Shown here one piece after another: positions 931 to 63,839 of a stretch of DNA of 64,000 nt. Made by a program: the position numbers and the translations under genes. The notes under the pieces were generated by a model. That model saw only the letters and a list, made by a program, of their open reading frames with translations, was not told the origin of the DNA and did no database searches. Origin of the DNA: an uncultured Verrucomicrobiae bacterium (GTDB lineage: Bacteria; Verrucomicrobiota; Verrucomicrobiia; Chthoniobacterales; JAATET01); the NCBI GenBank assembly GCA_963803825.1, contig CAWDOJ010000003.1, positions 327,507 to 391,506 of the forward strand. The letters are read 5' to 3'. How positions within the stretch are numbered: position 1 is the stretch's first letter; every line of letters begins with the position of its first letter.

Positions 931-959
931 TTGCCTCCGGCGCCGTCAGATGGTAGAAA
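931..959 (+). promoter_or_regulatory. Putative sigma70 promoter, leaderless position
   Basis: TTGCCT-17-TAGAAA, 6 nt before GTG 966. Confidence 0.35.
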
Positions 960-965
960 CGGAAA

Positions 966-1298
966 GTGACGTTACCGAACATCCCCGCCGCTCAAATCCA
1001 GAAGGATAAGGTCACAGAGTATCTCCTCGCCACGTCTCATCCCGAAGGCCGCGGGAAAGCGATCTTCTTCGCTTCGTTCGGATTCACACTCCACGACTGG
1101 CACATTCTTGCGGAGTCGTTGATTGCGCACGCGAAGAGCAACGCGGTAACAGGAGTTTCGGAATCTCGCTACGGCTCAAAATACCAAGTTGACGGTCCAC
1201 TCAATTGCCCGGACGGTCGATCACCGACAATCAGAGCAGTTTGGATTGTTGAGGTGACCGCAGATTTCCCAAGACTCGTCACAGCATATCCGCTATAG
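966..1298 (+). CDS. DUF6883-like protein (putative toxin)
   Basis: K..YLL..HP.GR.KA.FF..GF ... W ... PRLVTAYP pattern. Confidence 0.8.
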   Translation: MTLPNIPAAQIQKDKVTEYLLATSHPEGRGKAIFFASFGFTLHDWHILAESLIAHAKSNAVTGVSESRYGSKYQVDGPLNCPDGRSPTIRAVWIVEVTADFPRLVTAYPL

Positions 1299-1304
1299 AA
1301 CATC

Positions 1305-1535
1305 ATGATCCAAGAACACGATCAGGTCATTTTAACCTGCCCCATTCCGACTGATTCTCTTGAGATCGGGGACATCGGGGCTGTTGTTCACGTTTACGGA
1401 TCTGGTGAAGCATACGAGGTCGAGTTCGTTACACTGACGGGACGAACAGCTTCAGTCGTGACAGTGTCGTCGGAAGACATTCGGTCGGCTCGGTCCGAAG
1501 AGATCCCTCATGCGCGAGAATTGCTGCATACCTAA
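1305..1535 (+). CDS. DUF4926 protein (putative antitoxin/immunity)
   Basis: L..GD.GAVV....AYEVEF motif. Confidence 0.85.
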   Translation: MIQEHDQVILTCPIPTDSLEIGDIGAVVHVYGSGEAYEVEFVTLTGRTASVVTVSSEDIRSARSEEIPHARELLHT

Positions 1536-1872
1536 AATACAGGGCTAACAAGGCGCTGCAGCCAACCCCTAGCCGCTTCGCTGGCTGGGGTTGCTCGAAC
1601 CCGTTATCGGCAGCTCACCTCAGTGTTGGCTCGGTCATCCGCTCAGGGTGGCTGAGCTTGACGTTAGCAAATAGAACTCATGCCACTCAAGACGCCAAAA
1701 GAATGGATATCTCTTGGGACCGCCGGAACACTCCTCGTTGCATTACAACCAGCTTTTAGCTTTATACACTACTTCTGGAGTCTACGAATGGGAGCGTATC
1801 CAGTGAATGCGGATTCAATCGGAATACCGATCTATAATGAATTTCTTTCCTGGCTGATAGTGGCTCCCATAG

Positions 1873-3181
1873 GGCTCCTCCGAGATTGTAGTGGGAAACT
1901 GAAGAGGGTTTGAACGGAGAGGATGGATGCGGGTAGGAAGGAGTGCGATGAAGGATACAGAGTTTTACGCGCAGATCTTGGGATTGAAGAGTCCGTGGGT
2001 GGTTGAAGAAGTCGACTTGGCCGTGAGTGAGAAGCGGGTGGTGGTCCGGCTCGGGTATGAGCGGGGGACATTGTGGGCCAGTGAGGATGGAGAGCATCGA
2101 CTTCCGTGCCATGACCATGTCGAGCGCTTCTGGAAGCACATGGATACGTGCGGGTTCGAGACGTTGCTGGCGGCGCGAGTTCCGCGGTTGCGGTTGCCTG
2201 ATGGGCGGGTGGAAAGCGTGCCGGTGCCGTGGGCGGGAAAGGGCAGTCGCTTTACGCTGCTTTACGAGCGTTTTGCCATCGAAGTGATCCGAGCGTGTGC
2301 AACGGTGAGTTCGGCGGCGCGTTTGCTGGGACTGAGCTGGGATCAAGTTCACGGGATCATGCGACGGGCCGTTGAGCGGGGGCTCGAGCGTCGCGATCTC
2401 AGTGGATTGCGCTACGCCGGACTCGATGAAAAGAGCTTTGGCGGTGGGCAGAGCTACATTTCGCTCATGACTGATCTGGAAGGCAGCCGGGTGCTGGAAG
2501 TCACTGACGGCAACGACAAGCAAAGCGCGGCAGTCCTTTGGCAATGCCTACCCGAGGATGTCACCGCGGGCTTGGAAGCCGTGGCCGCCGACATGAGCGG
2601 GCATTTTGGTGCCAGCGTCGCAGACTACGCCCCGCAGGCTGATCTGGTCCACGACCGCTACCACATCAGCGCCCATCTCAACAAGGCAGTGAGCCAGGTC
2701 GTGCGCGCCGAAAACAAACGCCTGCAAGCCATGGGAGACGAACGCCTCAAGGGCACCCAGCGCCTCTTCGGCTACAACCCCGATCATCTCAGAGAGGAGG
2801 ATGTCTGCCGCTTTTCTCAACTGCGTCACTCCGATCTCAAGAGCGCTCGCGCTTGGGCCATCAAGGAAAACTTCCGCCGCTTCTGGGACTTCCGCTACGA
2901 GGCCAATGCCCGCAAGTTCTTCGCTGCTTGGTATGGCTGGGCTCGCCGCTCTCAACTCGAGCCCATCAAGAAGGTGGCGAAAACCCTCAAAAACCACTTT
3001 GAGAATATCATCACTTTCCTGAGCCACCGCATCACCAACGCGGCTACCGAGGCTCTCAATTCACGAATCCAATCCCTCAAGTCTGCCGCCCGTGGATTCC
3101 GTTCTTTCCTCAACTATCGGACCAGAATTCTCTTCTTCCTCGGTAAGCTCGATCTTTTCCCACTGTAAACCCTGAAGAGCC
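1873..3181 (+). mobile_element. ISL3-family IS, copy 1 (1309 bp)
   Basis: Ends GGCTCCTCCGAG..CTGAAGAGCC; 8-bp TSD TCCCATAG. Confidence 0.95.
1927..3168 (+). CDS. ISL3 transposase (likely start 1948)
   Basis: GLDEK, ADM, DRYH and TNA.TE.LN..I..LK..ARGFR motifs. Confidence 0.95.
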   Translation: MRVGRSAMKDTEFYAQILGLKSPWVVEEVDLAVSEKRVVVRLGYERGTLWASEDGEHRLPCHDHVERFWKHMDTCGFETLLAARVPRLRLPDGRVESVPVPWAGKGSRFTLLYERFAIEVIRACATVSSAARLLGLSWDQVHGIMRRAVERGLERRDLSGLRYAGLDEKSFGGGQSYISLMTDLEGSRVLEVTDGNDKQSAAVLWQCLPEDVTAGLEAVAADMSGHFGASVADYAPQADLVHDRYHISAHLNKAVSQVVRAENKRLQAMGDERLKGTQRLFGYNPDHLREEDVCRFSQLRHSDLKSARAWAIKENFRRFWDFRYEANARKFFAAWYGWARRSQLEPIKKVAKTLKNHFENIITFLSHRITNAATEALNSRIQSLKSAARGFRSFLNYRTRILFFLGKLDLFPL

Positions 3182-3568: not shown

Positions 3569-3958
3569 AGACTCTTATACAAAATTCATGAAGACCTCCG
3601 GTGGATGAAATAATGAGATGCATGAAGCACCACTGCCAAGCCGAACATTTGCAACTGAGCCTGGGGATTTTGTATCGATATCTAGAACTCCGGTGGATAA
3701 ATTCACTGGCCGGCTTGAATTCGGAGTCGAGCGGAGCGAGAACCCTCGCTAAAAATGATCCGAAGACGAACTCATATTTTGTGCGCAGCACGCGAACTTT
3801 TCAAGCAATTTTGCGTAATTCATCCAATCAGGACTAATGCCATTGGCGCACTGAACTTACCTCCTCCACCATCGCCACATCTGAGACAGCTCCACCTCAC
3901 ACAATTATACTTAGAAGACAGAACATCCAGAAATGGAGAAAAGCAATACGAGTCTAAC
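3566..3958 (+). other. Gene-less cassette, family A copy 1
   Basis: 393 bp between attC sites; no ORF conserved across all copies. Confidence 0.8.
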
Positions 3959-4777: not shown

Positions 4778-5170
4778 GTTAGACTCTTATACAGAATTCA
4801 TGAAGACCTCCGGTGGATGAAATAATGAGGTGCATGAAGCGCTCCTGCCAAACCGAACATTTGCAACTGAGCTTTGGGGTTCTGTATCAGTATCTAGACC
4901 TCCGGTGGATGAATTCACTGAGTGGCTTGAAGTCAAAGTTCAGCGAAGCGAGAACAGTTATTAAAAGTGATCCGAAGGCGAACTCATATTCTGTGCGCAG
5001 CACACTAATTTTTTGAGCAATTTTGCGTAATTCATCCAATCAGGACTGATGCCACTGGCTCACTGAACTTAACTCCTCCACCATCGCCACATCTGAGACA
5101 GCTCCACCTCACTCAATTATACTTAGAAAACAGAACATGCAGAAATGGAGAAAAGCAATACGAGTCTAAC
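4778..5170 (+). other. Gene-less cassette, family A copy 2
   Basis: 393 bp, homologous to 3566-3958. Confidence 0.8.
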
Positions 5171-6456: not shown

Positions 6457-7766
6457 GGCTCTTCAGGGTTTACAGTGGGAAAAGATCGAGCTTACCGAGG
6501 AAGAAGAGAATTCTGGTCCGATAGTTGAGGAAAGAACGGAATCCACGGGCGGCAGACTTGAGGGATTGGATTCGTGAATTGAGAGCCTCGGTAGCCGCGT
6601 TGGTGATGCGGTGGCTCAGGAAAGTGATGATATTCTCAAAGTGGTTTTTGAGGGTTTTCGCCACCTTCTTGATGGGCTCGAGTTGAGAGCGGCGAGCCCA
6701 GCCATACCAAGCAGCGAAGAACTTGCGGGCATTGGCCTCGTAGCGGAAGTCCCAGAAGCGGCGGAAGTTTTCCTTGATGGCCCAAGCGCGAGCGCTCTTG
6801 AGATCGGAGTGACGCAGTTGAGAAAAGCGGCAGACATCCTCCTCTCTGAGATGATCGGGGTTGTAGCCGAAGAGGCGCTGGGTGCCCTTGAGGCGTTCGT
6901 CTCCCATGGCTTGCAGGCGTTTGTTTTCGGCGCGCACGACCTGGCTCACTGCCTTGTTGAGATGGGCGCTGATGTGGTAGCGGTCGTGGACCAGATCAGC
7001 CTGCGGGGCGTAGTCTGCGACGCTGGCACCAAAATGCCCGCTCATGTCGGCGGCCACGGCTTCCAAGCCCGCGGTGACATCCTCGGGTAGGCATTGCCAA
7101 AGGACTGCCGCGCTCTGCTTGTCGTTGCCGTCAGTGACTTCCAGCACCCGGCTGCCTTCCAGATCAGTCATGAGCGAAATGTAGCTCTGCCCACCGCCAA
7201 AGCTCTTTTCATCGAGTCCGGCGTAGCGCAATCCACTGAGATCGCGACGCTCGAGCCCCCGCTCAACGGCCCGTCGCATGATCCCGTGAACTTGATCCCA
7301 GCTCAGTCCCAGCAAACGCGCCGCCGAACTCACCGTTGCACACGCTCGGATCACTTCGATGGCAAAACGCTCGTAAAGCAGCGTAAAGCGACTGCCCTTT
7401 CCCGCCCGCGGCACCGGCACGCTTTCCACCCGCCCATCAAGGCAACCGCAACCGCGGAACTCGCGCCGCCAGCAACGTCTCGAACCCGCACGTATCCATG
7501 TGCTTCCAGAAGCGCTCGACATGGTCATGGCACGGAAGTCGATGCTCTCCATCCTCACTGGCCCACAATGTCCCCCGCTCATACCCGAGCCGGACCACCA
7601 CCCGCTTCTCACTCACGGCCAAGTCGACTTCTTCAACCACCCACGGACTCTTCAATCCCAAGATCTGCGCGTAAAACTCTGTATCCTTCATCGCACTCCT
7701 TCCTACCCGCATCCATCCTCTCCGTTCAAACCCTCTTCAGTTTCCCACTACAATCTCGGAGGAGCC
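6457..7766 (-). mobile_element. ISL3-family IS, copy 2 (1310 bp), no TSD, at array orientation switch
   Basis: Same ends as copy 1; flanks TATTATAA and ACCCTGAG differ. Confidence 0.95.
6470..7712 (-). pseudogene. ISL3 transposase, frameshifted
   Basis: Extra A near 7440 (CATCAAGGC vs CATCAGGC) splits the ORF. Confidence 0.9.
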
Positions 7767-7843: not shown

Positions 7844-8242
7844 CTAGGGGTTGGCTGCAGCGCCTTGTTCGGCTGTATTTGCCCGGATAAAGTAGGATCG
7901 TGTTGTTTGAACATCGCCGAACGATCTTCCGTCGAACTGAACCTTGACTTGAATTCCCGGCCTAGGCGAGAAGATTGGCAGAATACCGAAATATAAATGC
8001 TTACCCAGCATGCCGATCTCCTCTTCATCAGCAATAGTTAGCGTCGGTCCTCCAACTAGTTTCTTGGACTCCCCAGATTTGTGAACGACAATATAGCTAG
8101 GTCCTTCTGAGACTTTTATTACGAGCTTGCCGTTGTCCAAAGCTACGGACTCGAATGGGCTAGTTCCCCGGACATCTGCAGCAGCAGAAATGTGTGAATA
8201 GACCAAGATGGCAGACGCTACAGTAAGTATTGGAATATTCAT
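7844..8242 (-). CDS. Secreted hypothetical protein
   Basis: Signal-peptide-like N-terminus; stops inside attC. Confidence 0.75.
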   Translation of the reverse strand: MNIPILTVASAILVYSHISAAADVRGTSPFESVALDNGKLVIKVSEGPSYIVVHKSGESKKLVGGPTLTIADEEEIGMLGKHLYFGILPIFSPRPGIQVKVQFDGRSFGDVQTTRSYFIRANTAEQGAAANP

Positions 8243-8544
8243 GATTATTTAGGTAAGCAGTCGATTGGCACGTTTCAAGGTCGGTTTATCACTAATTATA
8301 TCATCCACCGGAGGTTGAGCCGAACGTCAAGCTCAGCCACCCCGAACGGGCAACCGAGCCAACCCCTAGGTGAGCTGCCAGTAGCGGGTCCGAGCAACCC
8401 CAGCCAGCGAAGCGGCTAGGGGTTGGCTGCAGCGCCTTGTTCGGCTGTATTGGAAACGTGGTATCGCGATAATGCACGTAGAAAGCCACAAATACTGCCT
8501 TTGCACGATGAACGCGGGTTCAATGTAATTTTCTGCAGCTTCAT

Positions 8545-8766: not shown

Positions 8767-9033
8767 TATGAGGAGGGGTTTGCGAATCGGAATTTTGTAT
8801 CGAATACGATTTTCGCCTTACTTGTAAATTTGTAGATAGATCGTGGGCCCTTCGCGTCGATCTGTGTAATTTCATCCGCCGGAGGCTATTTCATGAGCCG
8901 AACGTCAAGCTCAGCCACCCTTAGCGGGTAACCGAGCCAACCCTTAGGTGAGCTGCCAGTGGCGGGACCGAGCAACCCCAGCCAGCGAAGCGGCTAGGGG
9001 TTGGCTGCAGCGCCTTGTTAGACCAGCATTTAT

Positions 9034-9429: not shown

Positions 9430-9560
9430 ATTTATTTATGGTCTAACGTCAAGCTCAGCCACCCCGAACGGGAAATCGAGCCAACCCTGAGGTGAACTGC
9501 AAATAGCGGGACCGAGCAACCCCAGCCAGCGAAGCGGCTAGGGGTTGGCTGCAGCGCCTT

Positions 9561-9954
9561 GTTAGACTCGTATTGCTTATCTCCGTTTCTGGATGTTCTG
9601 TTTTCTGAGTATAATTGTGTGAGGTGAAGCTGTCTCAAATGTCGCGATGGTGGAGGAGTTAGGTTCAGTGAGCCAGTGGCATCAGTCCTCATTGGATGAA
9701 TTACGCAAAAGTGCTCAGAAAAATTCGAGTGCTGCGCACAAAACATGAGTTCGCCTTCGGATCACTTATAATAACGGTTCTCGCTTCGCTAGACTTTGAG
9801 TTCAAGCCACTCAGTGAATTCATCCACCGGAGGTCTAGATATCGATACAAAATCCCCATGCTCAGTTGCAAATGTTCGGCTTGGCAGGAGCGCTTCATGC
9901 ATCTTATTGTATCATCCACCGGAGGTCTTCATGAATATTGTATAAGAGTCTAAC
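9561..9954 (-). other. Gene-less cassette, family A copy 3
   Basis: 394 bp homolog. Confidence 0.8.
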
Positions 9955-12964: not shown

Positions 12965-13393
12965 TTAGGTCTGTATTTGGCTTCTGAAGAAACGGCATAT
13001 AACGGACTTCCAGATGAAACGAAAGACACATACGACGGCTGCGAGCTCTAATCCGAAAAACCAGCCGAGTAGCGCACAAGGAACAACAGCAGTCATTTCC
13101 GGAAAATACTGAAATGGATTTTCGACCCCGAGATTGTGATAAAGAAGGGGTAGTAAAATGCAGTTAAAGGTTGCCCATAGAAAAATCGATAACCAAGCCC
13201 AAAGAATGAGCCGCTTATAGGAGTAGGTCTTTGTGAATCTCCATATAGGAAATGCGATTGCACAAACTAACGAGATGTATTGAAGCGAGATTGATAGTGT
13301 ATCAATATTTTGGTTCACGACGATGGTTTCCGGCAGGTAGGGAGTTGCGCCAAGGTTTTGTGCCGTCGGCAGTTGCTCCGCCGGAGGCTTCAT
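12965..13393 (-). CDS. Membrane hypothetical protein
   Basis: 3 hydrophobic segments; stop is the TAA of R''. Confidence 0.7.
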   Translation of the reverse strand: MKPPAEQLPTAQNLGATPYLPETIVVNQNIDTLSISLQYISLVCAIAFPIWRFTKTYSYKRLILWAWLSIFLWATFNCILLPLLYHNLGVENPFQYFPEMTAVVPCALLGWFFGLELAAVVCVFRFIWKSVICRFFRSQIQT

Positions 13394-15757: not shown

Positions 15758-16270
15758 CTAGGGGTTGGCTGCAGCGCCTTGTTCGGCTGTATTTGTATCG
15801 AGCTGCTCGAATTCGGTCTTGAATGGAGATGAATGGAAAACAAGGAAGCTCTTACCGTCGGATGATACTTGAACGGCAAAATAGCGTTCGTCAGCATATT
15901 TTGACATTTCTTCAGATGGGTCGTTTGACAGGTTGTAGCAAAACCCGAATGTCCAGCCAGTCCCGCCGTCAAAAACTGCTGGTCGAAGTAGTCGCGGAGT
16001 GTATGCACTAGCAAACTTTTGAATGAGCCCGTGTCGGTAAGATAGCCATTGATCCCGAGGGAGCCGCTCAAACGACGAGCCGTCGAGTTGAGCGGGTTGG
16101 AGATCCGTTGGGGTGAGCGTGTAGCCTTGTCTAAGAACATATTCCTCGACCGCTGTTCTTGCCTCGTCAAACGAGAGAGCGAAGTCCGGATGGCTGAGTG
16201 CTAGAAGCAGGACTGCCATGAATGTTTTCACTGTAGATTGGGATCGGATTAGGAGGTGTATTTTAATCAT
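15758..16270 (-). CDS. Secreted hypothetical protein
   Basis: Fills cassette. Confidence 0.75.
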   Translation of the reverse strand: MIKIHLLIRSQSTVKTFMAVLLLALSHPDFALSFDEARTAVEEYVLRQGYTLTPTDLQPAQLDGSSFERLPRDQWLSYRHGLIQKFASAYTPRLLRPAVFDGGTGWTFGFCYNLSNDPSEEMSKYADERYFAVQVSSDGKSFLVFHSSPFKTEFEQLDTNTAEQGAAANP

Positions 16271-16389
16271 CCGCCGGAGGCTATTGCAATGAGCCGAACG
16301 TCAAGCTCAGCCACCCTGAGCTTGTATAGGGATTTGGCAAACGGAACAACTGCCTGTAGAGGGTTCGTCAACCCCAGCCGCGATAGCGG

Positions 16390-16863
16390 CTAGGGGTTGG
16401 CTGCAGCGCCTTGTTCGGCTGTATTTCGCTCAAACTTAGATGAAAGGTCGGAAAAGAATAGCAGCGCTAGGATGGCTCCGGAAATTCCTGATGATAACAT
16501 GTCGAGCAGCATGACCGGTGCTGAGATGATATCATATGAGATCGTGAAAAATAACGGAAGCGTGCTCACTAGCATGAACACATAGAGAGTCCTCGCATAT
16601 TGGCGGAGCATCCAAAGACGGATCCAAGCCAATGTTGATCCTATTAGAATAAAAAAGGCATAAGGGATCGATATAAATTCCGGGATTTCGTGCTCATATA
16701 TCGGCGCATCGTAGGCTTGGGTTTTTAGATCGGGTGATAGCCAGGGGTCGCCTAATGCTCCAAGGAATAGGTAGACCACAATCAAAGTGCATTCTGATGA
16801 GATCAGTATCCGGAGGACTGTTTTTGTCTTCATACTGAACCTGGAAGGATTGAACAGATTCAA
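16390..16863 (-). CDS. 4-TM membrane hypothetical protein
   Basis: Duplicate at 22731-24431. Confidence 0.8.
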   Translation of the reverse strand: MNLFNPSRFSMKTKTVLRILISSECTLIVVYLFLGALGDPWLSPDLKTQAYDAPIYEHEIPEFISIPYAFFILIGSTLAWIRLWMLRQYARTLYVFMLVSTLPLFFTISYDIISAPVMLLDMLSSGISGAILALLFFSDLSSKFERNTAEQGAAANP

Positions 16864-17727: not shown

Positions 17728-19036
17728 GGCTCCTCCGAGATTGTAGTGGGAAACTGAAGAGGGTTTGAACGGAGAGGATGGATGCGGGTAGGAAGGAGTG
17801 CGATGAAGGATACAGAGTTTTACGCGCAGATCTTGGGATTGAAGAGTCCGTGGGTGGTTGAAGAAGTCGACTTGGCCGTGAGTGAGAAGCGGGTGGTGGT
17901 CCGGCTCGGGTATGAGCGGGGGACATTGTGGGCCAGTGAGGATGGAGAGCATCGACTTCCGTGCCATGACCATGTCGAGCGCTTCTGGAAGCACATGGAT
18001 ACGTGCGGGTTCGAGACGTTGCTGGCGGCGCGAGTTCCGCGGTTGCGGTTGCCTGATGGGCGGGTGGAAAGCGTGCCGGTGCCGTGGGCGGGAAAGGGCA
18101 GTCGCTTTACGCTGCTTTACGAGCGTTTTGCCATCGAAGTGATCCGAGCGTGTGCAACGGTGAGTTCGGCGGCGCGTTTGCTGGGACTGAGCTGGGGTCA
18201 AGTTCACGGGATCATGCGACGGGCCGTTGAGCGGGGGCTCGAGCGTCGCGATCTCAGTGGATTGCGCTACGCCGGACTCGATGAAAAGAGCTTTGGCGGT
18301 GGGCAGAGCTACATTTCGCTCATGACTGATCTGGAAGGCAGCCGGGTGCTGGAAGTCACTGACGGCAACGACAAGCAGAGCGCGGCAGTCCTTTGGCAAT
18401 GCCTACCCGAGGATGTCACCGCGGGCTTGGAAGCCGTGGCCGCCGACATGAGCGGGCATTTTGGTGCCAGCGTCGCAGACTACGCCCCGCAGGCTGATCT
18501 GGTCCACGACCGCTACCACATCAGCGCCCATCTCAACAAGGCAGTGAGCCAGGTCGTGCGCGCCGAAAACAAACGCCTGCAAGCCATGGGAGACGAACGC
18601 CTCAAGGGCACCCAGCGCCTCTTCGGCTACAACCCCGATCATCTCAGAGAGGAGGATGTCTGCCGCTTTTCTCAACTGCGTCACTCCGATCTCAAGAGCG
18701 CTCGCGCTTGGGCCATCAAGGAAAACTTCCGCCGCTTCTGGGACTTCCGCTACGAGGCCAATGCCCGCAAGTTCTTCGCTGCTTGGTATGGCTGGGCTCG
18801 CCGCTCTCAACTCGAGCCCATCAAGAAGGTGGCGAAAACCCTCAAAAACCACTTTGAGAATATCATCACTTTCCTGAGCCACCGCATCACCAACGCGGCT
18901 ACCGAGGCTCTCAATTCACGAATCCAATCCCTCAAGTCTGCCGCCCGTGGATTCCGTTCTTTCCTCAACTATCGGACCAGAATTCTCTTCTTCCTCGGTA
19001 AGCTCGATCTTTTCCCACTGTAAACCCTGAAGAGCC
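17728..19036 (+). mobile_element. ISL3-family IS, copy 3, inserted in attC
   Basis: TSD AGCGGATA; splits attC 17633-19067. Confidence 0.95.
17782..19023 (+). CDS. ISL3 transposase
   Basis: 413 aa, near identical to 1927-3168. Confidence 0.95.
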   Translation: MRVGRSAMKDTEFYAQILGLKSPWVVEEVDLAVSEKRVVVRLGYERGTLWASEDGEHRLPCHDHVERFWKHMDTCGFETLLAARVPRLRLPDGRVESVPVPWAGKGSRFTLLYERFAIEVIRACATVSSAARLLGLSWGQVHGIMRRAVERGLERRDLSGLRYAGLDEKSFGGGQSYISLMTDLEGSRVLEVTDGNDKQSAAVLWQCLPEDVTAGLEAVAADMSGHFGASVADYAPQADLVHDRYHISAHLNKAVSQVVRAENKRLQAMGDERLKGTQRLFGYNPDHLREEDVCRFSQLRHSDLKSARAWAIKENFRRFWDFRYEANARKFFAAWYGWARRSQLEPIKKVAKTLKNHFENIITFLSHRITNAATEALNSRIQSLKSAARGFRSFLNYRTRILFFLGKLDLFPL

Positions 19037-22811: not shown

Positions 22812-24034
22812 GGAAGCGCTGAACAAAACCTCCGACTTGCTGGTTCTGCGATTTGGCAAAAAATCGCCTCTGGGCAGCGGTCAAAGTCCGGCAAGTGATG
22901 GGCTTGGAAGGCGCGAGGACGAATGAATGGAGCAGAGATGCGGGTCGCAGGCAGTCCAAACTCCGTTTTGAAACGAAGTTTAGAGGGCCGGGAAGGTGTG
23001 GCGGGTGCGACCGGCGATGACCAAGTTTGCTAAAGCGAAGAGGGAGTAGAGTTGGGCGGTATTCTTCTCCAAGCCTCGGTATCGAACCTTCCGGTATTTG
23101 AAGAGGTTTTTGATCACGTGAAAGGGGTGTTCGACCAAGGACCGGACTTGGGCTTTGCGGCGCTCCCATTCCTTGAGAGCGTCTTTGTGGAGTCCCTCGG
23201 GCATGGCTTTGAGTTTTGAACGCTTGGCCGCCAGCAGCCACTCGGTATCAGCGAGGTCTTGGTTCTCCGGACGCTTGTCAGCTCCCAGGTAAGCGGCATC
23301 TCCGTGGACGCGCTTTTCCTGGCCATGGAGCAGGGAGCGGGTCTGGCTGATATCAGACACGTTGGCTGCGCTGCCCACGACGTGATGGACGAGTCCGCGC
23401 TGAGCGTCGACTCCCACGTGGGCTTTCATGCCGAAATACCACTGATTGCCCTTGCGGGTTTGATGCATGGCGGGATCACGCGCACCGGATCGGTTCTTCG
23501 TCGAGGACGGTGCCGCGATGATGGTCGCATCGATGATCGTGCCTTCCCGCAGACTGGATTGCCGGATTTGGAGGTGTTCACCGATCTGTTCGAAAATCGC
23601 TCGGGTCAGCTCGAAACGCTCGAGCAGATGCCGGAAATGCAGCAGCGTCGTCGCGTCGGGAACACTCTCACGACTCAGATCAATGCCCGCAAAGTTGCGC
23701 ATCGCCTGACTGTCGTAGATGGCATCCTCCAGAGCCTCGTCGGCTAACCCATACCACTGCGAGAGAAAGTAGATCCGCAGCATTTTCTCAATCCCCATCG
23801 GGGGCCGACCGCGCTTGCCCTTGGGATAATGCGGCTCGATCAAGCCCACCAGCGCCGCCCACGGAACCACTTCCTCCATCTGGGCCAGAAACTTCTCCCG
23901 CCGCGTGACCTTCTTCTTGGCCGAATACTCCACCGCTCCAAAGCTCATCTGACTTTCCATTTCCTCTCTTTATCAAATCTACCCGATAATCGGGAGTGTA
24001 ATGTGCTCACGTCTCGGGTTAAATCAGCGTTTCT
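22812..24034 (-). mobile_element. IS5-family IS, copy 1 (1223 bp)
   Basis: TIR GGAAGCGCTGA/TCAGCGTTTCT; TSD CTAG. Confidence 0.95.
22980..23960 (-). CDS. IS5 family transposase
   Basis: TRRE.FL.QME.VVPW, DATII, GMKAH.G.D, R..VEHPF. Confidence 0.95.
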   Translation of the reverse strand: MESQMSFGAVEYSAKKKVTRREKFLAQMEEVVPWAALVGLIEPHYPKGKRGRPPMGIEKMLRIYFLSQWYGLADEALEDAIYDSQAMRNFAGIDLSRESVPDATTLLHFRHLLERFELTRAIFEQIGEHLQIRQSSLREGTIIDATIIAAPSSTKNRSGARDPAMHQTRKGNQWYFGMKAHVGVDAQRGLVHHVVGSAANVSDISQTRSLLHGQEKRVHGDAAYLGADKRPENQDLADTEWLLAAKRSKLKAMPEGLHKDALKEWERRKAQVRSLVEHPFHVIKNLFKYRKVRYRGLEKNTAQLYSLFALANLVIAGRTRHTFPAL

Positions 24035-26313: not shown

Positions 26314-26707
26314 GTTAGACTCGTATTGCCTTTTTCCGTTTCTCGATGCTTCTGTTTTCTAAGTATAATTGTGTGAGGTGAAGCTGTATCAGATGTCGCG
26401 ATGGTGGAAGAGTTAAGTTCAGTGAGCCAGTGGCATTAGTCCTGATTGGATGAAGTACGCAAAATTACCTAAAAAATTCGAGTGCTGCGCACAAAATATG
26501 AGTTCGCCTTCGGATCACTTTTAATAACCGTTCTCGCTTCGCTCGACTTTGAATTCAAGCCACTCAGTGATTTCATCCACCGGAGGTCTGGCTATCGATA
26601 CAAAATCCCCAGGCTCAGTAGCAAATGTTCGGCTCGGCATGAGCGCTTCATGCATCTCATTATTTCATCCACCGGAGGTCGTTATGAATTTTGTATAGGA
26701 GTCTAAC
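26314..26707 (-). other. Gene-less cassette, family A copy 4
   Basis: 394 bp homolog. Confidence 0.8.
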
Positions 26708-31251: not shown

Positions 31252-31437
31252 CAGAGAAGCATTGTAGATTGGTTGGAGGCATTCACATTATATCATCCGC
31301 CGGAGGCTACTCATGAAGCCGAACGTCAAGCTCAGCCACCCTGAGCGGGTGACCGAGCCAACCCCTAGGTGAGCTGCCAATAGCGGGACCGAGCAACCCC
31401 AGCCAGCGAAGCGGCTAGGGGTTGGCTGCAGCGCCTT

Positions 31438-31830
31438 GTTAGACTCGTATTGCTTTTCTCCATTTCTGGATGTTCTGTCTTCTAAGAATAATTGTGTGAG
31501 GTGGAGCTGTCTCAGATGTGGCGATGGTGGAGGAGGTATGTCCAGGGAGCCAATGGCATTAGTCCTGATTAGCTGAATTACGCAAAATCGCTCGATAAGT
31601 TCGCGTGCTGCGCACAAAATATGAGTTCGTCTTCGGATCATTTTTAACGAGCCTTCTCGCTCCGCTCGACTTCGAAATCAAGCCGGCCAGTGAATTCATC
31701 CACCGGAGGTCTAGATATCGATACAAAACCCCCAGGCTCAGTTGCAAATGTTCGGCTTGGCAGAAGTGCTTCATGCATCTGATTATTTCATCCACCGGAG
31801 GTCTTCATGAATTCTGTATAAAAGTCTAAC
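31438..31830 (-). other. Gene-less cassette, family A copy 5
   Basis: 393 bp homolog. Confidence 0.8.
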
Positions 31831-43090: not shown

Positions 43091-44399
43091 GGCGCTTCAG
43101 GGTTTACAGTGGGAAAAGATCGAGCTTACCGAGGAAGAAGAGAATTCTGGTCCGATAGTTGAGGAAAGAACGGAATCCACGGGCGGCAGACTTGAGGGAT
43201 TGGATTCGTGAATTGAGAGCCTCGGTAGCCGCGTTGGTGATGCGGTGGCTCAGGAAAGTGATGATATTCTCAAAGTGGTTTTTGAGGGTTTTCGCCACCT
43301 TCTTGATGGGCTCGAGTTGAGAGCGGCGAGCCCAGCCATACCAAGCAGCGAAGAACTTGCGGGCATTGGCCTCGTAGCGGAAGTCCCAGAAGCGGCGGAA
43401 GTTTTCCTTGATGGCCCAAGCGCGAGCGCTCTTGAGATCGGAGTGACGCAGTTGAGAAAAGCGGCAGACATCCTCCTCTCTGAGATGATCGGGGTTGTAG
43501 CCGAAGAGGCGCTGGGTGCCCTTGAGGCGTTCGTCTCCCATGGCTTGCAGGCGTTTGTTTTCGGCGCGCACGACCTGGCTCACTGCCTTGTTGAGATGGG
43601 CGCTGATGTGGTAGCGGTCGTGGACCAGATCAGCCTGCGGGGCGTAGTCTGCGACGCTGGCACCAAAATGCCCGCTCATGTCGGCGGCCACGGCTTCCAA
43701 GCCCGCGGTGACATCCTCGGGTAGGCATTGCCAAAGGACTGCCGCGCTCTGCTTGTCGTTGCCGTCAGTGACTTCCAGCACCCGGCTGCCTTCCAGATCA
43801 GTCATGAGCGAAATGTAGCTCTGCCCACCGCCAAAGCTCTTTTCATCGAGTCCGGCGTAGCGCAATCCACTGAGATCGCGACGCTCGAGCCCCCGCTCAA
43901 CGGCCCGTCGCATGATCCCGTGAACTTGATCCCAGCTCAGTCCCAGCAAACGCGCCGCCGAACTCACCGTTGCACACGCTCGGATCACTTCGATGGCAAA
44001 ACGCTCGTAAAGCAGCGTAAAGCGACTGCCCTTTCCCGCCCACGGCACCGGCACGCTTTCCACCCGCCCATCAGGCAACCGCAACCGCGGAACTCGCGCC
44101 GCCAGCAACGTCTCGAACCCGCACGTATCCATGTGCTTCCAGAAGCGCTCGACATGGTCATGGCACGGAAGTCGATGCTCTCCATCCTCACTGGCCCACA
44201 ATGTCCCCCGCTCATACCCGAGCCGGACCACCACCCGCTTCTCACTCACGGCCAAGTCGACTCCTTCAACCACCCACGGACTCTTCAATCCCAAGATCTG
44301 CGCGTAAAACTCTGTATCCTTCATCGCACTCCTTCCTACCCGCATCCATCCTCTCCGTTCAAACCCTCTTCAGTTTCCCACTACAATCTCGGAGGAGCC
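43091..44399 (-). mobile_element. ISL3-family IS, copy 4, inserted in attC
   Basis: TSD TCGCGCAA; splits attC 43017-44450. Confidence 0.95.
43104..44345 (-). CDS. ISL3 transposase
   Basis: 413 aa, near identical to other copies. Confidence 0.95.
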   Translation of the reverse strand: MRVGRSAMKDTEFYAQILGLKSPWVVEGVDLAVSEKRVVVRLGYERGTLWASEDGEHRLPCHDHVERFWKHMDTCGFETLLAARVPRLRLPDGRVESVPVPWAGKGSRFTLLYERFAIEVIRACATVSSAARLLGLSWDQVHGIMRRAVERGLERRDLSGLRYAGLDEKSFGGGQSYISLMTDLEGSRVLEVTDGNDKQSAAVLWQCLPEDVTAGLEAVAADMSGHFGASVADYAPQADLVHDRYHISAHLNKAVSQVVRAENKRLQAMGDERLKGTQRLFGYNPDHLREEDVCRFSQLRHSDLKSARAWAIKENFRRFWDFRYEANARKFFAAWYGWARRSQLEPIKKVAKTLKNHFENIITFLSHRITNAATEALNSRIQSLKSAARGFRSFLNYRTRILFFLGKLDLFPL

Positions 44400-45709: not shown

Positions 45710-46374
45710 GTTAGGCCCGAGGGCGATCTGCTACCCCGGACAATCTTGAACTCCAATGAGCCAACCCCGGATCTGATCTGCGAAGCACATATTCTCATCG
45801 GCTTACGAAGATAGAAAACCTCAATTCTTATCAAAAAAATTCGACCTGCGGTGCTTTCTCGTTTTGGAATCGATGACGTTATCGCCTGTCAGTGAATTGA
45901 GCTGCGAGCGGGTCGAAAGCGCAAGTCATCCGCCGGAGGCTATCTTGTGGGAGATCGGGTGGAAGCGGAGGGATCAAATTACGCTCAATGGAGCCGATCT
46001 GGTCATGAATGGCTCTGCAGGCATGAGCTGATGGGCGGTCGATCGAGAAAAGTGCAGCGTTGTCCGATTGCGAGGTCGTCATGGTCGCTGCTCTGAGCGG
46101 GCCATGATGACCGGTCGATCTACAAGGCATGAATATCCAACTTCCCAGCGTCAGGTGATAGCGCATTACCCGGACTTGCTCGAACAACAGGTGGATCGAT
46201 TTGTGGGCGTCTTGGGCAGATGATGCGAGCCGATCTGGAGTGATCCGGGGGATGAGAGGGTGAAAGGGCTGTCCCTCCGGGTCAGCTCCAGATCGGCGGT
46301 CGAAAATCCCGAGAACTTCCGCCTCCCGATGTATAAATATCTGATCCGCCGGAGGCTCACTGGTATGGCCTAAC
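45710..46374 (-). other. Probably gene-less cassette (665 bp)
   Basis: The only long ORF starts inside attC and looks spurious; carries two hairpin motifs. Confidence 0.5.
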
Positions 46375-47605: not shown

Positions 47606-47830
47606 GCGTCTATATGGTTATACTGATCGCCCGCATTTGAGAAGCTACAGTTTCTCAAGAGGCCGTGGGTGAAGACGGATTGCATTTCTCATCCGTCGGA
47701 GACTGCCCAACGTCAAGCTCAGCCACCCCGAACGGGCGATCAAGCCAACCTTGAGGTGAGCTGCCAGTAGCGGGACCGAGCAACCCCAGCCAGCGAAGCG
47801 GCTAGGGGTTGGCTGCAGCGCCTTGTTAGG

Positions 47831-48696: not shown

Positions 48697-48697
48697 G

Positions 48698-52192: not shown

Positions 52193-52648
52193 TTATTCAC
52201 CGGAGGTTCGCCGGTAGAGGTAAAATTGGAACTCGCGGATATGCCATCTGCAGTGCGCCCGATAGCTCTCGACGAAGTTCCACAAAGCGTCATCAACACT
52301 GGTGTTTTGAAAGCGCCAAATAACATCTTCAAAATCCAGCGAGAGGTCGACCAGATCGTCAATGGCATCGCGAATCATTGGATCGAACGTGGAAGTGGCG
52401 ACATCAAAAGTGGGGAAACAGTATGATCCGTATTCAGGAAATAGAAATTCTATTGTTGCTTTGCGATCTGAATAGGCCCTTTTGGGTCCGTCCGGATAGT
52501 CAGTGTCATCGAATCTATAGGAAATTAGACAGTGGGCAGCAATAATCTGATCGCAAATCTCAAGAAGCTCGGAATCATCTTTCATGCCCTCTTGAGTTAC
52601 ATAGGAAACAAACCTCTCAAGTAACGATTTGATCTCTATCGATTGCAT
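52193..52648 (-). CDS. Hypothetical protein (DUF5063-like)
   Basis: DA.DDL.D...D ... ALW.F..SY..H..WH. Confidence 0.65.
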   Translation of the reverse strand: MQSIEIKSLLERFVSYVTQEGMKDDSELLEICDQIIAAHCLISYRFDDTDYPDGPKRAYSDRKATIEFLFPEYGSYCFPTFDVATSTFDPMIRDAIDDLVDLSLDFEDVIWRFQNTSVDDALWNFVESYRAHCRWHIREFQFYLYRRTSGE

Positions 52649-55046: not shown

Positions 55047-55320
55047 TGCAGAGATTCTGTGAGCAAACGCTAGGACGAAAAGTGATATTTACAGGTTGCT
55101 CAGAAATATTTCATCCACCGGAGGTCGAGCCGAACGTCAAGCTCAGCCACCCCGAACGGGTGAGCGAACTGCGTGAGGTGTAGGGTAGGAGTAGCGCTTT
55201 TCGAACGTCCGGGCAGTGGCGCGGCTAGGGGTTGGCTGCAGCGCCTTGTTCGGCCCGCGATGCTCAATCGCTGTAGACGGTAACGATTCAGAGGGTTTGT
55301 GGTTGGATACATTACGCCTT

Positions 55321-55590: not shown

Positions 55591-55902
55591 ATCTTTCCTC
55601 GCTCCGCGGGAAAGTTTCTAGGAGAAGGAGGGACGGTGGTTGAAGGCGTTAAACCGATTCCCCAATCGAGTCTCGACTGTCGTAAAATCCTGATTTGCTG
55701 AAGATTCTTCAGGTGGCAAAGTGGCTCTGCTGACGAGTAACGACAGGCTCAGAAATATATCATCCGCCGGAGGCTATATGAAGCCGAACGTCAAGCTCAG
55801 CCACCCTGAGCTTGTATAAAGATTCGGAAAACGGAGCAACTGCTTGTGGCGGGTTCCTCAACCCCAGCCGCGATAGCGGCTAGGGGTTGGCTGCAGCGCC
55901 TT

Positions 55903-58934: not shown

Positions 58935-59328
58935 GTTAGACTCGTATTGCTTTTCTCCGTTTCTGGATGCTCTGTTTTCTAGGTATATCTGTGTGAGGTC
59001 AAGCTGCCTCAGATGTGGCGATGGTGGAGGAGTGAAGTTCAGTGATCCAGTGGCATCAGTCCTGATTGGATGAAGTACGCAAAAGTACCTAAAAAATTCG
59101 AGTGCTGCGCATAAAATATGAGTCCGCCTTCGGATCACTTTTTAATAACCGTTCTAGCTTCGCTCGACTTTGAATTTAAGTCGGCCAGTGAATTCATCCA
59201 CCGGAGGTCTAGATATCGATACAAAATCCCCAGGCTCAGTTGCAAGTGTTCGGCTTCGCAGGAGTGCTTCATGCATCTCATTATTTCATCCACCGGAGGT
59301 CTACATGAATTGTGTATAAGAGTCTAAC
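58935..59328 (-). other. Gene-less cassette, family A copy 6
   Basis: 394 bp homolog. Confidence 0.8.
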
Positions 59329-59441: not shown

Positions 59442-59836
59442 GTTAGACCCGCATTGTATTTCTTTGCTGCTGAAAATAACGATTTACAATGGAATTGAAT
59501 GGATTGGCCTATTTATTGCAAGTCGGCGTGGAAAAAAGCCGAATTGTTGGAATTGATTTGGACAAAGTGTTATTGAATAAATTTCCAAAAGTCGCTCTGA
59601 AAAATTCGAGTGCTTCGCACTAAATATGAGTTCGCCTTCGGCTCACTTTTACGAAGCGTTCTCGCTTCGCTCGACTTTCGATGCAAGACATTCAGAAAAT
59701 GCATCCACCGGAGGTCTAGATTAGCATGTTTAATGCAGTGGCGTAAACGGGGAAACCGTCTGAGACCGCAGAGATTATCCGGAATATTATATTTTTATCC
59801 ACCGGAGGTCTTCATCCATTCCTTATAGGGTCTAAC
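59442..59836 (-). other. Gene-less cassette, divergent family A member (A')
   Basis: 395 bp; keeps both motif boxes and the central segment, the rest has diverged. Confidence 0.75.
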
Positions 59837-61189: not shown

Positions 61190-61295
61190 ATTTATAAGAC
61201 CGAACGTCAAGCTCAGCCACCCTGAGCGGGCAACCGAGCCAACCCCCAGGTAAGCTGCCGGTAGCGGGACCGAGCAACCCCAGCCGGCGAAGCGT

Positions 61296-61742: not shown

Positions 61743-61941
61743 CAGAGAAGCATTGTAGATTGGTTGGAGGCATTCACATTATATCATCCGCCGGAGGCTA
61801 CTCATGAAGCCGAACGTCAAGCTCAGCCACCCTGAGCGGGCAATCGAGCCAGCCCTAAGGTGAGCTGCCGATAGCGGGTTCGAACAACCCCAGCCAGCGA
61901 AGCGGCTAGGGGTTGGCTGCAGCGCCTTGTTCGGCTGTATT

Positions 61942-62343
61942 CTATTCGAGGTGTGTGATGGTCCGTGAGAATGAGGGAAGTCCTAACTGGGCAGAGGCAA
62001 CAGAGTATTCTCGCTCTGTAAGTGCTCCCACCACTGAATCTTTTGAGTTGGCATACCCGCTGTCCTTGGTCATGTCCAGATAGAAGAAGTTTATAATGGT
62101 TCGATTGTCATCAGGATGTTGCTTCGCCACGATGTATCGTTGATCGTATCCAATAGAGAATACCGTTTCAGGTATCCTTCCGACCGTAGAGCCGTTTCCC
62201 ACGTCGTAGGAAACACTCATCTGTGAATCTGTATCGACAGCGATTAACCGATATGGTCCGACGATCTCTTCATCGTGGACGAATCCACAGCTGGCGAAGC
62301 AAGACGCGACGGCGGAATAGAGCGCAAATCGGATCAGGAACAT
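61942..62343 (-). CDS. Lipoprotein, identical to 54645-55046
   Basis: Identical translation. Confidence 0.75.
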   Translation of the reverse strand: MFLIRFALYSAVASCFASCGFVHDEEIVGPYRLIAVDTDSQMSVSYDVGNGSTVGRIPETVFSIGYDQRYIVAKQHPDDNRTIINFFYLDMTKDSGYANSKDSVVGALTEREYSVASAQLGLPSFSRTITHLE

Positions 62344-62545
62344 TGCAGAGATTCTGTGAGCAAACGCTAGGACGAAAAGTGATATTTACAGGTTGCTCAG
62401 AAATATTTCATCCACCGGAGGTCGAGCCGAACGTCAAGCTCAGCCACCCTGAGCGGGTGATCGAGCCAACCCTGAGGTGACCTGCCGGTAGCGGGTTCGA
62501 GCAACCCCAGCCAGCGAAGCGGCTAGGGGTTGGCTGCAGCGCCTT

Positions 62546-63051
62546 GTTCGACGCGCATCTGTTCAAACTACGCATATCGTGACTTCCTCTAGCCAACCCC
62601 TCCGTATTTCTACCGAAGGCACTTCCACAATGAAGATAGAATCTCTGAAAAGGCTCCGCAATCGTGGTCAGTGAATTGCGCCTGGAAGATTGTATGGGGG
62701 TTGAAGCGCAATTGGAAACGAGGGGCGGGAATCAAGCTCACAAATATTCGCCTGGAAGATTGTTGGTAATGGGAAGTTGAATTGGAACGGAGGGATGGGA
62801 ATCAGGCTCATCAATATGCGCTTGGAAGGATTGTGGGGGCTTCTGGTGACTTCCAATTGATTGTTCGAAGTCACCAAAATATTATACACGGCGGGCAACT
62901 CTGAGCGCCGCCTAGCCTTTGCGTATACCTCCAACGCTGGTCGAAAATAGACGAACCGACGGTTTCAAACTGGATCTGGCCTAGTCTGATTTGGTCCAGA
63001 CAACTGTAATCAAAAAATAGTCATCCGCCGGAGGCTCACAATGAGTCGAAC
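62546..63051 (-). other. Probably gene-less cassette with internal tandem repeat
   Basis: No convincing ORF. Confidence 0.55.
62679..62840. repeat. Degenerate 70-bp tandem repeat (2 full units plus start of a third)
   Basis: Units start 62679, 62749, 62819 with CGCYTGGAAG(G)ATTGT; full units share AATTGGAA, GGGAATCA.GCTCA and AATAT. Confidence 0.8.
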
Positions 63052-63140
63052 GTCAAGCTCAGCCACCCTGAGCGGGTAACCGAGCCAACCCTGAGGTGAG
63101 CTGCCGGTAGCGGGATCGAGCAATCCCAGCAGCGGAGCGG

Positions 63141-63668
63141 CTAGGGGTTGGCTGCAGCGCCTTGTTCGGCTGAATTCGTGATCTCTTTTAGATAGATGAA
63201 TCTCAAAGCTCCTTTGGAATCGAGACCAACTGCATCAATGGATTCGCTTGTTTGGTTTGAGGACTTTTCTGACCGCGTCACGACAGTCGCTCCTATCGGT
63301 TGTAAGTTTGGACCAAATTGTTGACCATCAATAGAAGTCGGTTCTTCAATCATTGATTTCAGTATCTTGAGATAATGCGAGTTAATGCTCGGAATCTCAT
63401 CCAAGGTATAAAACGATGAGGTGGTGACTGTCCACCCACTATCGAGAGAATCGAAGAACATCTTCCAAGAAGCTATTGTATCTCGGAATCCTAGGGTTCC
63501 CGATGCATCGGGTCCGTAAAGTTTCGTGATCGCTTCTAAATCTCGTGAATCGATTGCACTATCAAGTGCATCCATAAAGTCGCCTTTCTGATCGTGCGAG
63601 ACTTTTGAAATGGGTGATAGCAATACTATAATTGCGAGAATGAGGTTGAGCATGCGGAGTTCGGGCAA
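63141..63668 (-). CDS. Secreted hypothetical protein
   Basis: Fills cassette; start 63668 or 63653. Confidence 0.75.
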   Translation of the reverse strand: MPELRMLNLILAIIVLLSPISKVSHDQKGDFMDALDSAIDSRDLEAITKLYGPDASGTLGFRDTIASWKMFFDSLDSGWTVTTSSFYTLDEIPSINSHYLKILKSMIEEPTSIDGQQFGPNLQPIGATVVTRSEKSSNQTSESIDAVGLDSKGALRFIYLKEITNSAEQGAAANP

Positions 63669-63839
63669 GGTGCTGATAGATTTCTATTTCATCCGCCGGA
63701 GGCTGAGCCGAACGTCAAGCTCAGCCACCCCGAGCGGGCAGTCGAGCCAACCCTGAGGTGAACTGCCAATAGCGGGACCGAGCAACCCCAGCCAGCGAAG
63801 CGGCTAGGGGTTGGCTGCAGCGCCTTGTTCGGTCTGTAT

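Follow-up and report, generated by a model that had tools for sequence, protein, structure and literature searches.

In integrons, the bottom strand of the attC site is the strand that the integrase IntI recombines, and it is also the template for cassette-sense RNA. Repetitive extragenic palindromic (REP) elements and the subterminal hairpins of IS200/IS605-type insertion sequences (IS) are short, strand-specific hairpins that are read as single-stranded DNA (ssDNA). Mini-hairpins with GNA triloops form a further class; according to the available part of one published account, only GNA loops closed as in GCGNAGC give an extraordinarily stable mini-hairpin, GCGNAGC melting at 76, 73, 71 and 70 °C for N = A, G, C and T, respectively, ssiA of RSF1010 contains CCGAAGG, and the promoters of the N4 mini-vRNAP contain GCGGAGC and are bound best with a GGA loop (PMC13037366). 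The stability of d(GNA) loops depends strongly on the closing pair, as stated in the accessible text of a second study (PMC3201870). Here we describe a motif of the form CATCC-RYC-GGA-GRY in the cassettes of a very large chromosomal integron array, part of which makes up the whole stretch of 64 000 nt that was analysed (positions 327507–391506 of contig C3 in genome G000, from an uncultured Verrucomicrobiae bacterium; referred to below as the window). The motif is real, specific to cassettes and fixed to one strand, and it has a 3 bp stem under selection for complementarity together with an invariant loop and flank. We consider, tentatively, that it may act as a folded ssDNA signal on the attC bottom strand.

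The host genome comprises 3.3 Mb with 62.5 % G+C, whilst the array is about 50 % G+C. On C3 the array extends from 310263 to 414056, with about 150 attC sites and an inverted segment at 314979–333593. In the window each attC end word occurs 92 times, and 90 attC sites, about 126–127 nt long, are complete. Above window position 7850 most long open reading frames (ORFs) lie on the minus strand, placing the coding (top) strand on minus and the attC bottom strand on plus; below 6100 this orientation is flipped. The TT in the R′ core that follows CTGAGCTTGAC/G was taken as the start of each cassette (G/TT crossover). For a wider sample, the G000 array and the arrays of five sister genomes were cut at the crossover into 964 cassettes, of which 962 were at least 300 nt long and the two shorter ones were dropped. 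Pseudo-cassettes of more than 3000 nt that spanned IS elements or inverted segments were also dropped; where complete cassettes were required, so was the open one that ends each array. Single-linkage blastn clustering of the cassette bodies (at least 60 % cover) gave 503 families, and strand counts were made on 946 normal-size cassettes (621 kb). Stem changes were scored in an alignment (A1) of 93 instances (92 distinct rows), which were picked blind to the four variable positions and which omit the G000 motif copies outside the window. The attC end word was present 44–362 times per genome in all five sister genomes, with few or none in 55 other relatives.

In the window, CATCCNNCGGAG matched 24 times against 0.16 expected, a number that was reached in none of 100 shuffles, and RYCGGAGRY matched 33 times against 8.2 expected. 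Reading each match in context gave 28 copies with a paired 3 bp stem and one mispaired copy (ACC..GTT, 3686, minus strand), always on the attC bottom strand; the RYCGGAGRY matches at 19364, 22828, 34487, 43047 and 52199 lacked the motif context and were excluded. The match at 52199–52207 (plus strand) reads ACC-GGA-GGT with a different flank at a cassette 3′ end, 17 nt beyond the R″ end word of attC, and was judged to be out of context. Fifteen non-A cassettes had the motif 7–27 nt past the crossover (14 when the A-like cassette 59835 is not counted), and each family A cassette carried two copies, 27 and 119 nt after the crossover. The copies at 933, 3594, 3686, 4806 and 4898 are on the minus strand and follow the inverted array segment. 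Stems in the window were ACC/GGT, GCC/GGC and one GTC/GAC (47695), with no hybrid. These results bear out a preliminary description of the window, which had reported about 29 copies on the attC bottom strand, a position close to the crossover in 14 non-A cassettes and a strand that flips with the array. All of the sites that it listed exist, although its coordinates mixed CATCC starts with stem starts: the site given as 31293 has its CATCC at 31294 and its stem at 31299, and those given as 45927 and 46343 are CATCC or GATCC starts rather than stem starts. All copies are given in the table.

Table. Motif copies in the window, with one attC site bearing a cap word; positions are those of the window, and cassettes are named by their start position
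Feature	Position	Strand	Details
5′ copy GCC-GGA-GGC, flank not CATCC	933–946	-	cassette start 914 (+ = coding strand); cargo DUF6883 + DUF4926
Family A 5′ copy CATCC-ACC-GGA-GGT	3594–3607	-	
Family A internal copy, sole mispaired stem ACC..GTT, flank TATCC	3686–3699	-	
Family A 5′ copy ACC/GGT	4806–4819	-	
Family A internal copy ACC/GGT	4898–4911	-	
5′ copy ACC/GGT	8302–8315	+	9 nt past crossover; cassette 8324
5′ copy GCC/GGC	8873–8886	+	cassette 8902
Family A internal copy	9821–9834	+	
Family A 5′ copy	9913–9926	+	cassette 9953
5′ copy GCC/GGC, flank GCTCC	13375–13388	+	in frame within ORF (MKPPAEQ...); cassette 13405
5′ copy GCC/GGC	16268–16281	+	cassette 16298; 170-aa ORF open from motif ATG
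attC beside copy 16268, bottom strand	16293–16419	+	GCGNNAGC word ~87 nt from R′ end
Family A internal copy	26574–26587	+	
Family A 5′ copy	26666–26679	+	cassette 26706
5′ copy GCC/GGC	31294–31307	+	cassette 31323
Family A internal copy	31697–31710	+	
Family A 5′ copy	31789–31802	+	cassette 31829
Internal second copy GCC/GGC	45927–45940	+	433 nt into cassette 46373
5′ copy GCC/GGC, flank GATCC (no ATG)	46343–46356	+	cassette 46373
5′ copy, compensatory GTC/GAC	47690–47703	+	cassette 47710 (DUF2442 + DUF4160)
5′ copy ACC/GGT	55112–55125	+	cassette 55134
5′ copy GCC/GGC	55761–55774	+	cassette 55788
Family A internal copy	59195–59208	+	
Family A 5′ copy	59287–59300	+	cassette 59327
A-like cassette, internal copy ACC/GGT	59702–59715	+	
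A-like cassette, 5′ copy, flank TATCC (no ATG)	59796–59809	+	cassette 59835
5′ copy GCC/GGC	61785–61798	+	cassette 61814 (duplicate of 31323)
5′ copy ACC/GGT	62409–62422	+	cassette 62431 (duplicate of 55134)
5′ copy GCC/GGC	63022–63035	+	cassette 63050
5′ copy GCC/GGC	63690–63703	+	cassette 63712

The five sister genomes carry the motif as well. Across the wider sample, CTCCGNNGGA was found within the first 70 nt of the cassette in 73 of the 503 families, at offsets of 7–27 nt with a mode of 9 nt. The coding-strand consensus of these 73 families was R-C-C-T-C-C-G-G-Y-G-G-A-T-G-A, followed by a weakly kept A-A-T-A-W-T; 11 core positions were identical in all 73, and the information fell to noise about 7 nt past the core. 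Read on the bottom strand, the sequence is 5′-(A/T-rich)-TCATCC-[RYC-GGA-GRY]-3′. Eight columns of A1 were invariant in 93/93 rows. The stem occurred in four paired versions (GCC/GGC, ACC/GGT, GTC/GAC and ATC/GAT) around an unchanged loop and flank, the fourth being an internal ATC-TCC-GAT-GGATGA in a 35-copy family of 460 nt cassettes. Counted by family and variant, there were 64 GCC/GGC, 13 ACC/GGT, one GTC/GAC and five mispaired stems (two ACC/GGC, two TCC/GGC and one ACC/GCA). The absence of hybrid stems noted in the preliminary description thus holds for the window but not for the wider sample, where rare hybrids make up 5 of 83 family-by-variant combinations.

Over the 92 distinct rows, the outer pair was GC in 69, AU in 18 and other in five, the middle pair was CG in 83, UA in seven and other in two, and the inner pair was CG in all 92. 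In total, 97.5 % of stem cells paired and 25 cells had changed on both sides (18 outer, seven middle), a combination of pairing and covariation that none of 500 shuffles reached. The compensatory stem that had been proposed is therefore upheld, and non-pairing stems were not frequent in the larger sample (five and two of 92 rows at the two variable pairs). In control alignments with slid partners 0.7–67 % of cells paired, and the competing helix CCTCC/GGAKG showed no covariation, its second pair being unpaired in 84/92 rows. Single-step stem variants were rare, two of them being odd copies inside one high-copy family, whereas double-step versions were common. Since the common derived stems differ at exactly complementary positions, selection has acted on base pairing rather than on protein half-sites.

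The motif was confined to the integron. All 35 copies of the strict 14-mer CCTCCGGYGGATGA in G000 lay within the 104 kb array, which is 3 % of the genome, and a looser 12-mer occurred 37 times within the array and 19 times in the remaining 3.2 Mb. The 14-mer was present at 7–67 copies per genome in all five genomes of the genus that were scored (G000–G003 and G005) and at no more than one copy in each of 146 other genomes of the order. An 18-mer scan of all species genomes returned 43 stretches, in which clustered matches were restricted to a few uncultured Verrucomicrobiae contigs, the remaining records having single scattered matches as expected by chance; two scans of the metagenome collection gave no match to the motif. 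In the strand-count set the strict form occurred 215 times on the coding strand and never on the other, unlike the genome-wide, two-strand spread of a REP-like word. CTCCG peaked sharply 10–19 nt past the crossover: this bin contained 198 cassettes and the others 4–42 each. The enrichment in cassettes, the strand bias and the distance to attC that the preliminary description had anticipated were thus all observed; its picture of a tag for cassette 5′ ends captures the sharp peak near the crossover but not the roughly 40 % of strict copies that are internal and far from attC. Elsewhere in G000, at C15:201042–201370 and outside the integron, three CATCCNNCGGAG matches were spaced exactly 164 nt apart, which is probably a tandem repeat.

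With respect to the strand that folds, C-GGA-G was read on the bottom strand in 92/92 distinct rows, within a CC-GGA-GG core, whereas the top strand reads C-TCC-G. The stability of C-GNA-G triloops had been invoked in the preliminary description, and only the bottom strand of the motif gives the C-GGA-G form of the class set out in the available part of PMC13037366. Three transition-type single-step variants (two ACC/GGC and one GCC/GAC) kept a G·T wobble on the bottom strand and in no case (0/3) on the coding strand, a weak hint in favour of bottom-strand folding.

The attC sites of the same arrays carry mini-hairpin words of the same class. GCGNAGC or GCGNNAGC was present on the bottom strand of 625/800 attC sites in the six arrays, compared with nine on the top strand; the figures for the window were 79/90 and none. 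This cap occupied one fixed place about 80–88 nt from the R′ end and was mostly GCGAAGC. The words seen were GCGAAGC, GCGGAGC, GCGCAGC or GCGATAGC, with examples at 793–919 (minus strand), 8319–8445 and 16293–16419 and also in L003–L038, and several attC sites without a cap word had, by eye, another C-GCA-G loop on the bottom strand. In cassette bodies (417 kb) the seven-letter cap words numbered 193 and 138 on the two strands, which is background. The cap could be the physical basis of bottom-strand folding, or of the preference for that strand, in this lineage. Because the lineage places GNA mini-hairpins on the recombinogenic strand as a rule, the odds that the motif is also read on that strand are raised. 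No paper joining attC, integron and triloop was found, and among the literature matches listed none described a conserved hairpin at the cassette 5′ end. Separately, family A cassettes (e.g. 9446–9953) have GCGAAGC or GCGGAGC about 45 nt past the internal motif copy on the coding strand, which is the opposite strand from the attC caps.

The GC skew of the sequence around the arrays is relevant to the exposure of this strand. On the bottom-strand side it was +0.10 to +0.27 along 300 kb of C3 (G000 C3 1–300000) and +0.22 to +0.39 over 10 kb past intI in each of three sister genomes (L095, L096 and L097). By the usual rule, a positive skew places the bottom strands on the lagging-strand template, which is often single-stranded. 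As judged from skew only, this suggests arrays of about 150–360 cassettes whose bottom strands lie on the template of the lagging strand; according to the accessible part of an earlier report, 25 of 30 chromosomal arrays were oriented the opposite way, and arrays with the present orientation had at most 22 cassettes (PMC5371416).

Taken together, these observations lead us to favour, at somewhat less than even probability, a folded ssDNA signal on the attC bottom strand. Between Okazaki fragments, or once excision or transfer has taken place, the bottom strand would be single-stranded, and the mini-hairpin would then form beside the R′ box, where a protein might recognize it by its invariant GGA loop and its TCATCC flank. 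By analogy only, the signal could fix an RNA or primer start, or a boundary between single- and double-stranded DNA, just beside attC; this ssi-like step takes up the smaller share of the probability that we give to the folded signal and is in itself improbable. A still less probable, and narrower, proposal is a new integron cis-element, namely a single-strand initiation signal on the recombined strand. The A of the ATG trails the stem by 2 nt, and under such a scheme a primer or transcript would start in the A/T-rich flank, at or near this A, and run into the cassette away from attC, on either the lagging-strand template or a single-stranded circle formed by an excised cassette. Copying would reach the adjacent attC last, leaving it folded and exposed whilst the rest of the cassette became double-stranded. 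If this were true, the motif and the attC caps would together mean that the lineage uses GNA mini-hairpins to choose and to manage its recombinogenic strand.

A number of observations weigh against a folded ssDNA signal. Nearest-neighbour DNA folding of six contexts of 37–43 nt, on both strands and with parameters that lack a GNA bonus, gave no stable hairpin (z −0.26 to +1.01), and where the motif folded at all it did so by TCC–GGA pairing instead of RYC–GRY pairing. For the 3:0 wobble asymmetry P is about 0.125, and C-to-T damage to an exposed strand could give the same pattern; owing to kinship, the compensatory versions may reflect as few as three independent events. Only some 15 % of cassette families have the motif; of the 215 strict copies, 123 are no more than 30 nt from the crossover and 92 are more than 70 nt away, and one 35-copy family has the motif only at about 146 nt. 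Copies so far from the crossover, which are mostly second copies in high-copy gene-less cassettes, do not readily fit a function coupled to attC. The presence of the motif was not linked to the cap type of the attC belonging to the same cassette or of the one upstream (P = 0.59 and 0.84), motif families were not significantly higher in copy number (mean 3.1 vs 1.75, both medians 1; Mann–Whitney P = 0.10) and they were not shared between genomes in significant excess (P = 0.30). We know of no cognate protein for the motif. Finally, the coding strand reads RYC-TCC-GRY-GG-ATG-A and then becomes A/T-rich, the same ATGA(A) context as at ordinary cassette starts; the ATG follows the GG in 57/73 families, and the longest ORF has its first ATG at a median position of 79 nt in 61 motif families and of 19 nt in 391 motif-less families (P = 6e-9).

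These last features, the ATG-A context and the long leaders, together with the internal copies, keep alive a role in expression. The best-surviving form of it, which we regard as unlikely but as a serious contender, is an RNA-level translation module in which an mRNA hairpin stands 2 nt before a genuine AUG that starts either the cassette ORF or a short upstream ORF, the latter loading ribosomes after the attC RNA hairpin and feeding the main ORF by coupling. The ATG is followed by A in 67/73 families, and variants with one extra A (GGAATGA) retain it; ATGAA is the start of 168/335 ordinary cassette ORFs, which seldom have a Shine–Dalgarno word (6/143 and 3/43). The ORF opened by the motif ATG has at most five codons in 24/57 families and at least 40 in 11/57. 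Long ORFs start exactly at the motif ATG in 6/45 cases and 35–63 nt after it in 20/45, and for ORFs of at least 80 aa the median start is at 76 nt with the motif and 16 nt without. Several of the short ORFs end in an ATGA overlap with the next ORF, an overlap expected by chance in about three of 10 TGA stops, and their frame and length vary between related leaders. A precedent at attI of class 1 integrons is provided by ORF-11, ORF-17 and ORF-18, according to the available part of PMC8876359, and cassette translation rate shapes array expression according to that of PMC11511950. Against this explanation, hand estimates make a 3 bp UCC-loop hairpin in RNA marginal and its AUC/GAU version unfavourable, nearest-neighbour RNA folding of the motif contexts gave z −0.55 to +1.02, and no G·U intermediate was seen on the coding strand. 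Furthermore, GGA is invariant yet the T and G of the ATG are kept in only 61/73 and 63/73 families, 16 families have no ATG at all, and no Shine–Dalgarno word precedes it.

Some other properties of the cassette ORFs were noted. They start with ATGAA(A) 10–25 nt past the crossover, behind an A/T-rich leader without a Shine–Dalgarno word, and several unrelated ORFs run into attC and share a few end residues that are encoded by the R″ side.

The expression role might alternatively be exerted at the DNA level, by a cassette-borne promoter in which the TG of GGATGA and the A/T-rich hexamer make an extended −10 element, spread on a common 5′ leader to unrelated and gene-less cassettes and driving their own and downstream genes. 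We regard this as improbable. In its favour, the motif is invariably sense-oriented and precedes the ORF, the leaders are long, and T12 G13 plus one base plus AATAWT fits the spacing of TGn and hexamer. Two-gene cassettes (DUF2442 + DUF4160 and DUF6883 + DUF4926), which we take to be of toxin–antitoxin style, carry the motif, as do high-copy gene-less cassettes with one or two copies. In the accessible parts of two reports, gene-less cassettes of Vibrio arrays show sense promoter activity (PMC11014356), and a 101 bp segment of the qacE 5′UTR (untranslated region) with its promoter is fused to several unrelated cassettes (PMC8876359). A double-stranded promoter, though, does not explain why the stem changes are compensatory; the GC-rich part holds 2 bits per position against 0.3–0.6 bits for the −10-like part, and there is no conserved −35. 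A scan of 54–64 kb for the sigma-70 consensus found 13 sites, compared with 10.6 ± 2.9 in shuffles, with one at a motif cassette; internal copies often lack the A/T-rich hexamer, and no strict copy of the word lies in the 3.2 Mb outside the array.

It is very unlikely that the motif is merely an inherited leader without function, i.e. an ancestral 5′ leader spread by cassette fusion or recombination, with its palindromic symmetry maintained by hairpin-templated repair. Many motif cassettes do share TTCGGCTCR before the core and a similar 20–30 nt after it, most begin with the TTCGGC form of the R′ box, and the copy-number and sharing figures above show no advantage. Set against this are the fixation of the core in every family and row whilst the flanks decay within about 7 nt, the rarity of single-step compared with double-step stems, and the unrelated cargo: of 10 window ORFs tested, six had no Pfam family and the others belonged to four different ones (DUF4160, DUF2442, DUF6883 and DUF4926). 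Least probable of all, to the point of being negligible, is a double-stranded operator for joint control of motif cassettes by a dimeric regulator on RYC-N3-GRY or the overlapping TCCG-N-CGGA; the core does consist of two overlapping palindromes, and the GGAGG variant is a perfect 13 bp palindrome with 57 copies in one 411 nt family, but this is the minority form, symmetric changes in four versions would need four matching regulators, the cargo is unrelated with no common regulator gene, and host genes have no copies.

Further candidates were considered and rejected. No known RNA family was matched in the 64 kb window by Rfam at gathering score. The motif is not coding, as its frame relative to upstream ATGs varies and its offsets (7–17, 22, 26 and 27 nt) are not multiples of 3; it is read in frame in two cassettes, 13405 and one outside the window. 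A small bottom-strand ORF after GGAGG was dismissed: about half of the copies have an ATG there, but with varying frames and early stops, and CAT after TTRRRY is common in motif-less cassettes too. In family A, a 40 aa ORF from the second motif ATG had 20, 24 and 29 variable columns of 41 at codon positions 1, 2 and 3, and two of 15 copies were frameshifted, so that its coding status is doubtful. The 16S rRNA tail is the canonical CACCUCCUUU, and CCUCC in the mRNA cannot bind it, as it is of the same sense as the anti-Shine–Dalgarno sequence. A CsrA/Rsm site was discounted since a search of G000 (93 % complete) for PF02599 found none, with a positive control in three reference genomes. No complementary word was seen at the cassette's own 3′ end that could extend the attC stem, and likeness to DnaA boxes and rolling-circle nick sites, judged by eye only, was partial (6–8 of 9) and was dropped.

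Candidate readers of the motif were also sought around intI. IntI is 556 aa long, and its gene is divergent from the cassettes. Recorded lengths of IntI are 549–565 aa, with an N-terminal extension of about 245 aa that lacks a Pfam family (L086 1273–2943, plus strand) and that also occurs in genera g3 and g4 of the family. This extension was rejected as the reader, given that g3 and g4 have at most one motif copy (G007, G008 and G013–G015), a count for which G016 was set aside; the weak point is that these genomes are fragmented. In the three genomes inspected, no motif copy was found on the attI side, and the 10 kb beyond intI held no unusual gene common to all three, no search having been aimed at a primase or RNA polymerase. 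In G000, intI is split by an IS over two contig ends (C3:414585–415004 and C13:91293–92294).

Several additional features of the arrays were recorded. An IS with a 413 aa transposase is present in several copies in or beside attC (1927–3168 and 17782–19023 on the plus strand, 43104–44345 and 6470–7612 on the minus strand), and a second repeated element with a 326 aa ORF is found at 22980–23960 and 34639–35619 (both minus strand); IS copies also border the inverted stretch of the array on the window's left side. The family of cassette 45927–46373 (relatives L006 and L026–L028) has two motif copies about 416 nt apart and a GC-rich leader with complementary segments, common to two other families, which had no Rfam match at gathering score and could be a structured RNA. 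A high-copy cassette family that lacks the motif and any ORF longer than about 50 aa is represented in the window at 11694, 26199, 32217, 39889, 42461 and 56174; its members are 386–388 nt long and number 16 in G000. The sister genomes have their own high-copy gene-less families of 396–465 nt, several with a long central inverted repeat, and such families may be RNA-coding or regulatory cassettes.

So far attC has been the one folded ssDNA site underlying integron biology, with all other parts of a cassette regarded as cargo. Were cassette starts to bear a further conserved, compensatory and strand-fixed element, it would be either a new cis-signal of a single-strand pathway or a portable expression module whose structured core is unusual; in the former case cassette folding, priming and strand choice would become testable.

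The motif may be compared with each of the known systems. Of the genome-wide or transposon-borne elements, REP and IS200/IS605-type hairpins have longer stems and lie across the genome or at transposon ends, whereas the motif is found only in cassettes (35/35). ORF-11, ORF-17 and ORF-18 of attI1 are, like the ORFs opened by many motif copies, very short ORFs at a cassette boundary that could hand ribosomes to a start without a Shine–Dalgarno sequence; in the available part of PMC8876359 they lie in attI with GGAG 8 nt before the ATG, whereas the motif ATG is inside the cassette, 2 nt past a GC-rich hairpin, with no Shine–Dalgarno word. Like the qacE 101 bp segment and the Vibrio promoter cassettes, as far as these are described in the accessible parts of PMC8876359 and PMC11014356, the motif is a 5′ module on unrelated cassettes, in the sense direction, with a long leader and also on gene-less cassettes; it differs from cassette promoters in its compensatory stem, its invariant GC-rich core, the lack of a −35 and the weakness of its −10-like part. 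It shares its arrays and its strand with attC, which acts as a folded bottom strand, but it has no R″/R′ or L″/L′ boxes and no GTTRRRY core, is 15 nt rather than about 120–127 nt in length, and lies beyond the crossover at the cassette 5′ end, so that it travels with the downstream cassette. The likeness to the mini-hairpins GCGNAGC and GCGNNAGC of the phage G4 origin, ssiA of RSF1010 and the N4 promoters, in the part of PMC13037366 available, extends to a C-GNA-G core closed by G–C, the same polarity, strand specificity on the strand that is active when single-stranded, and the GGA loop that is best for the N4 mini-vRNAP. The motif departs from that class in having a stem of 3 bp instead of 5–7, in residing in bacterial integron cassettes and not in a phage or plasmid origin, and in that its folding is deduced from sequence and covariation only. 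It is set beside both the mini-hairpin single-strand signals and the integron cis-elements, as a member of neither.

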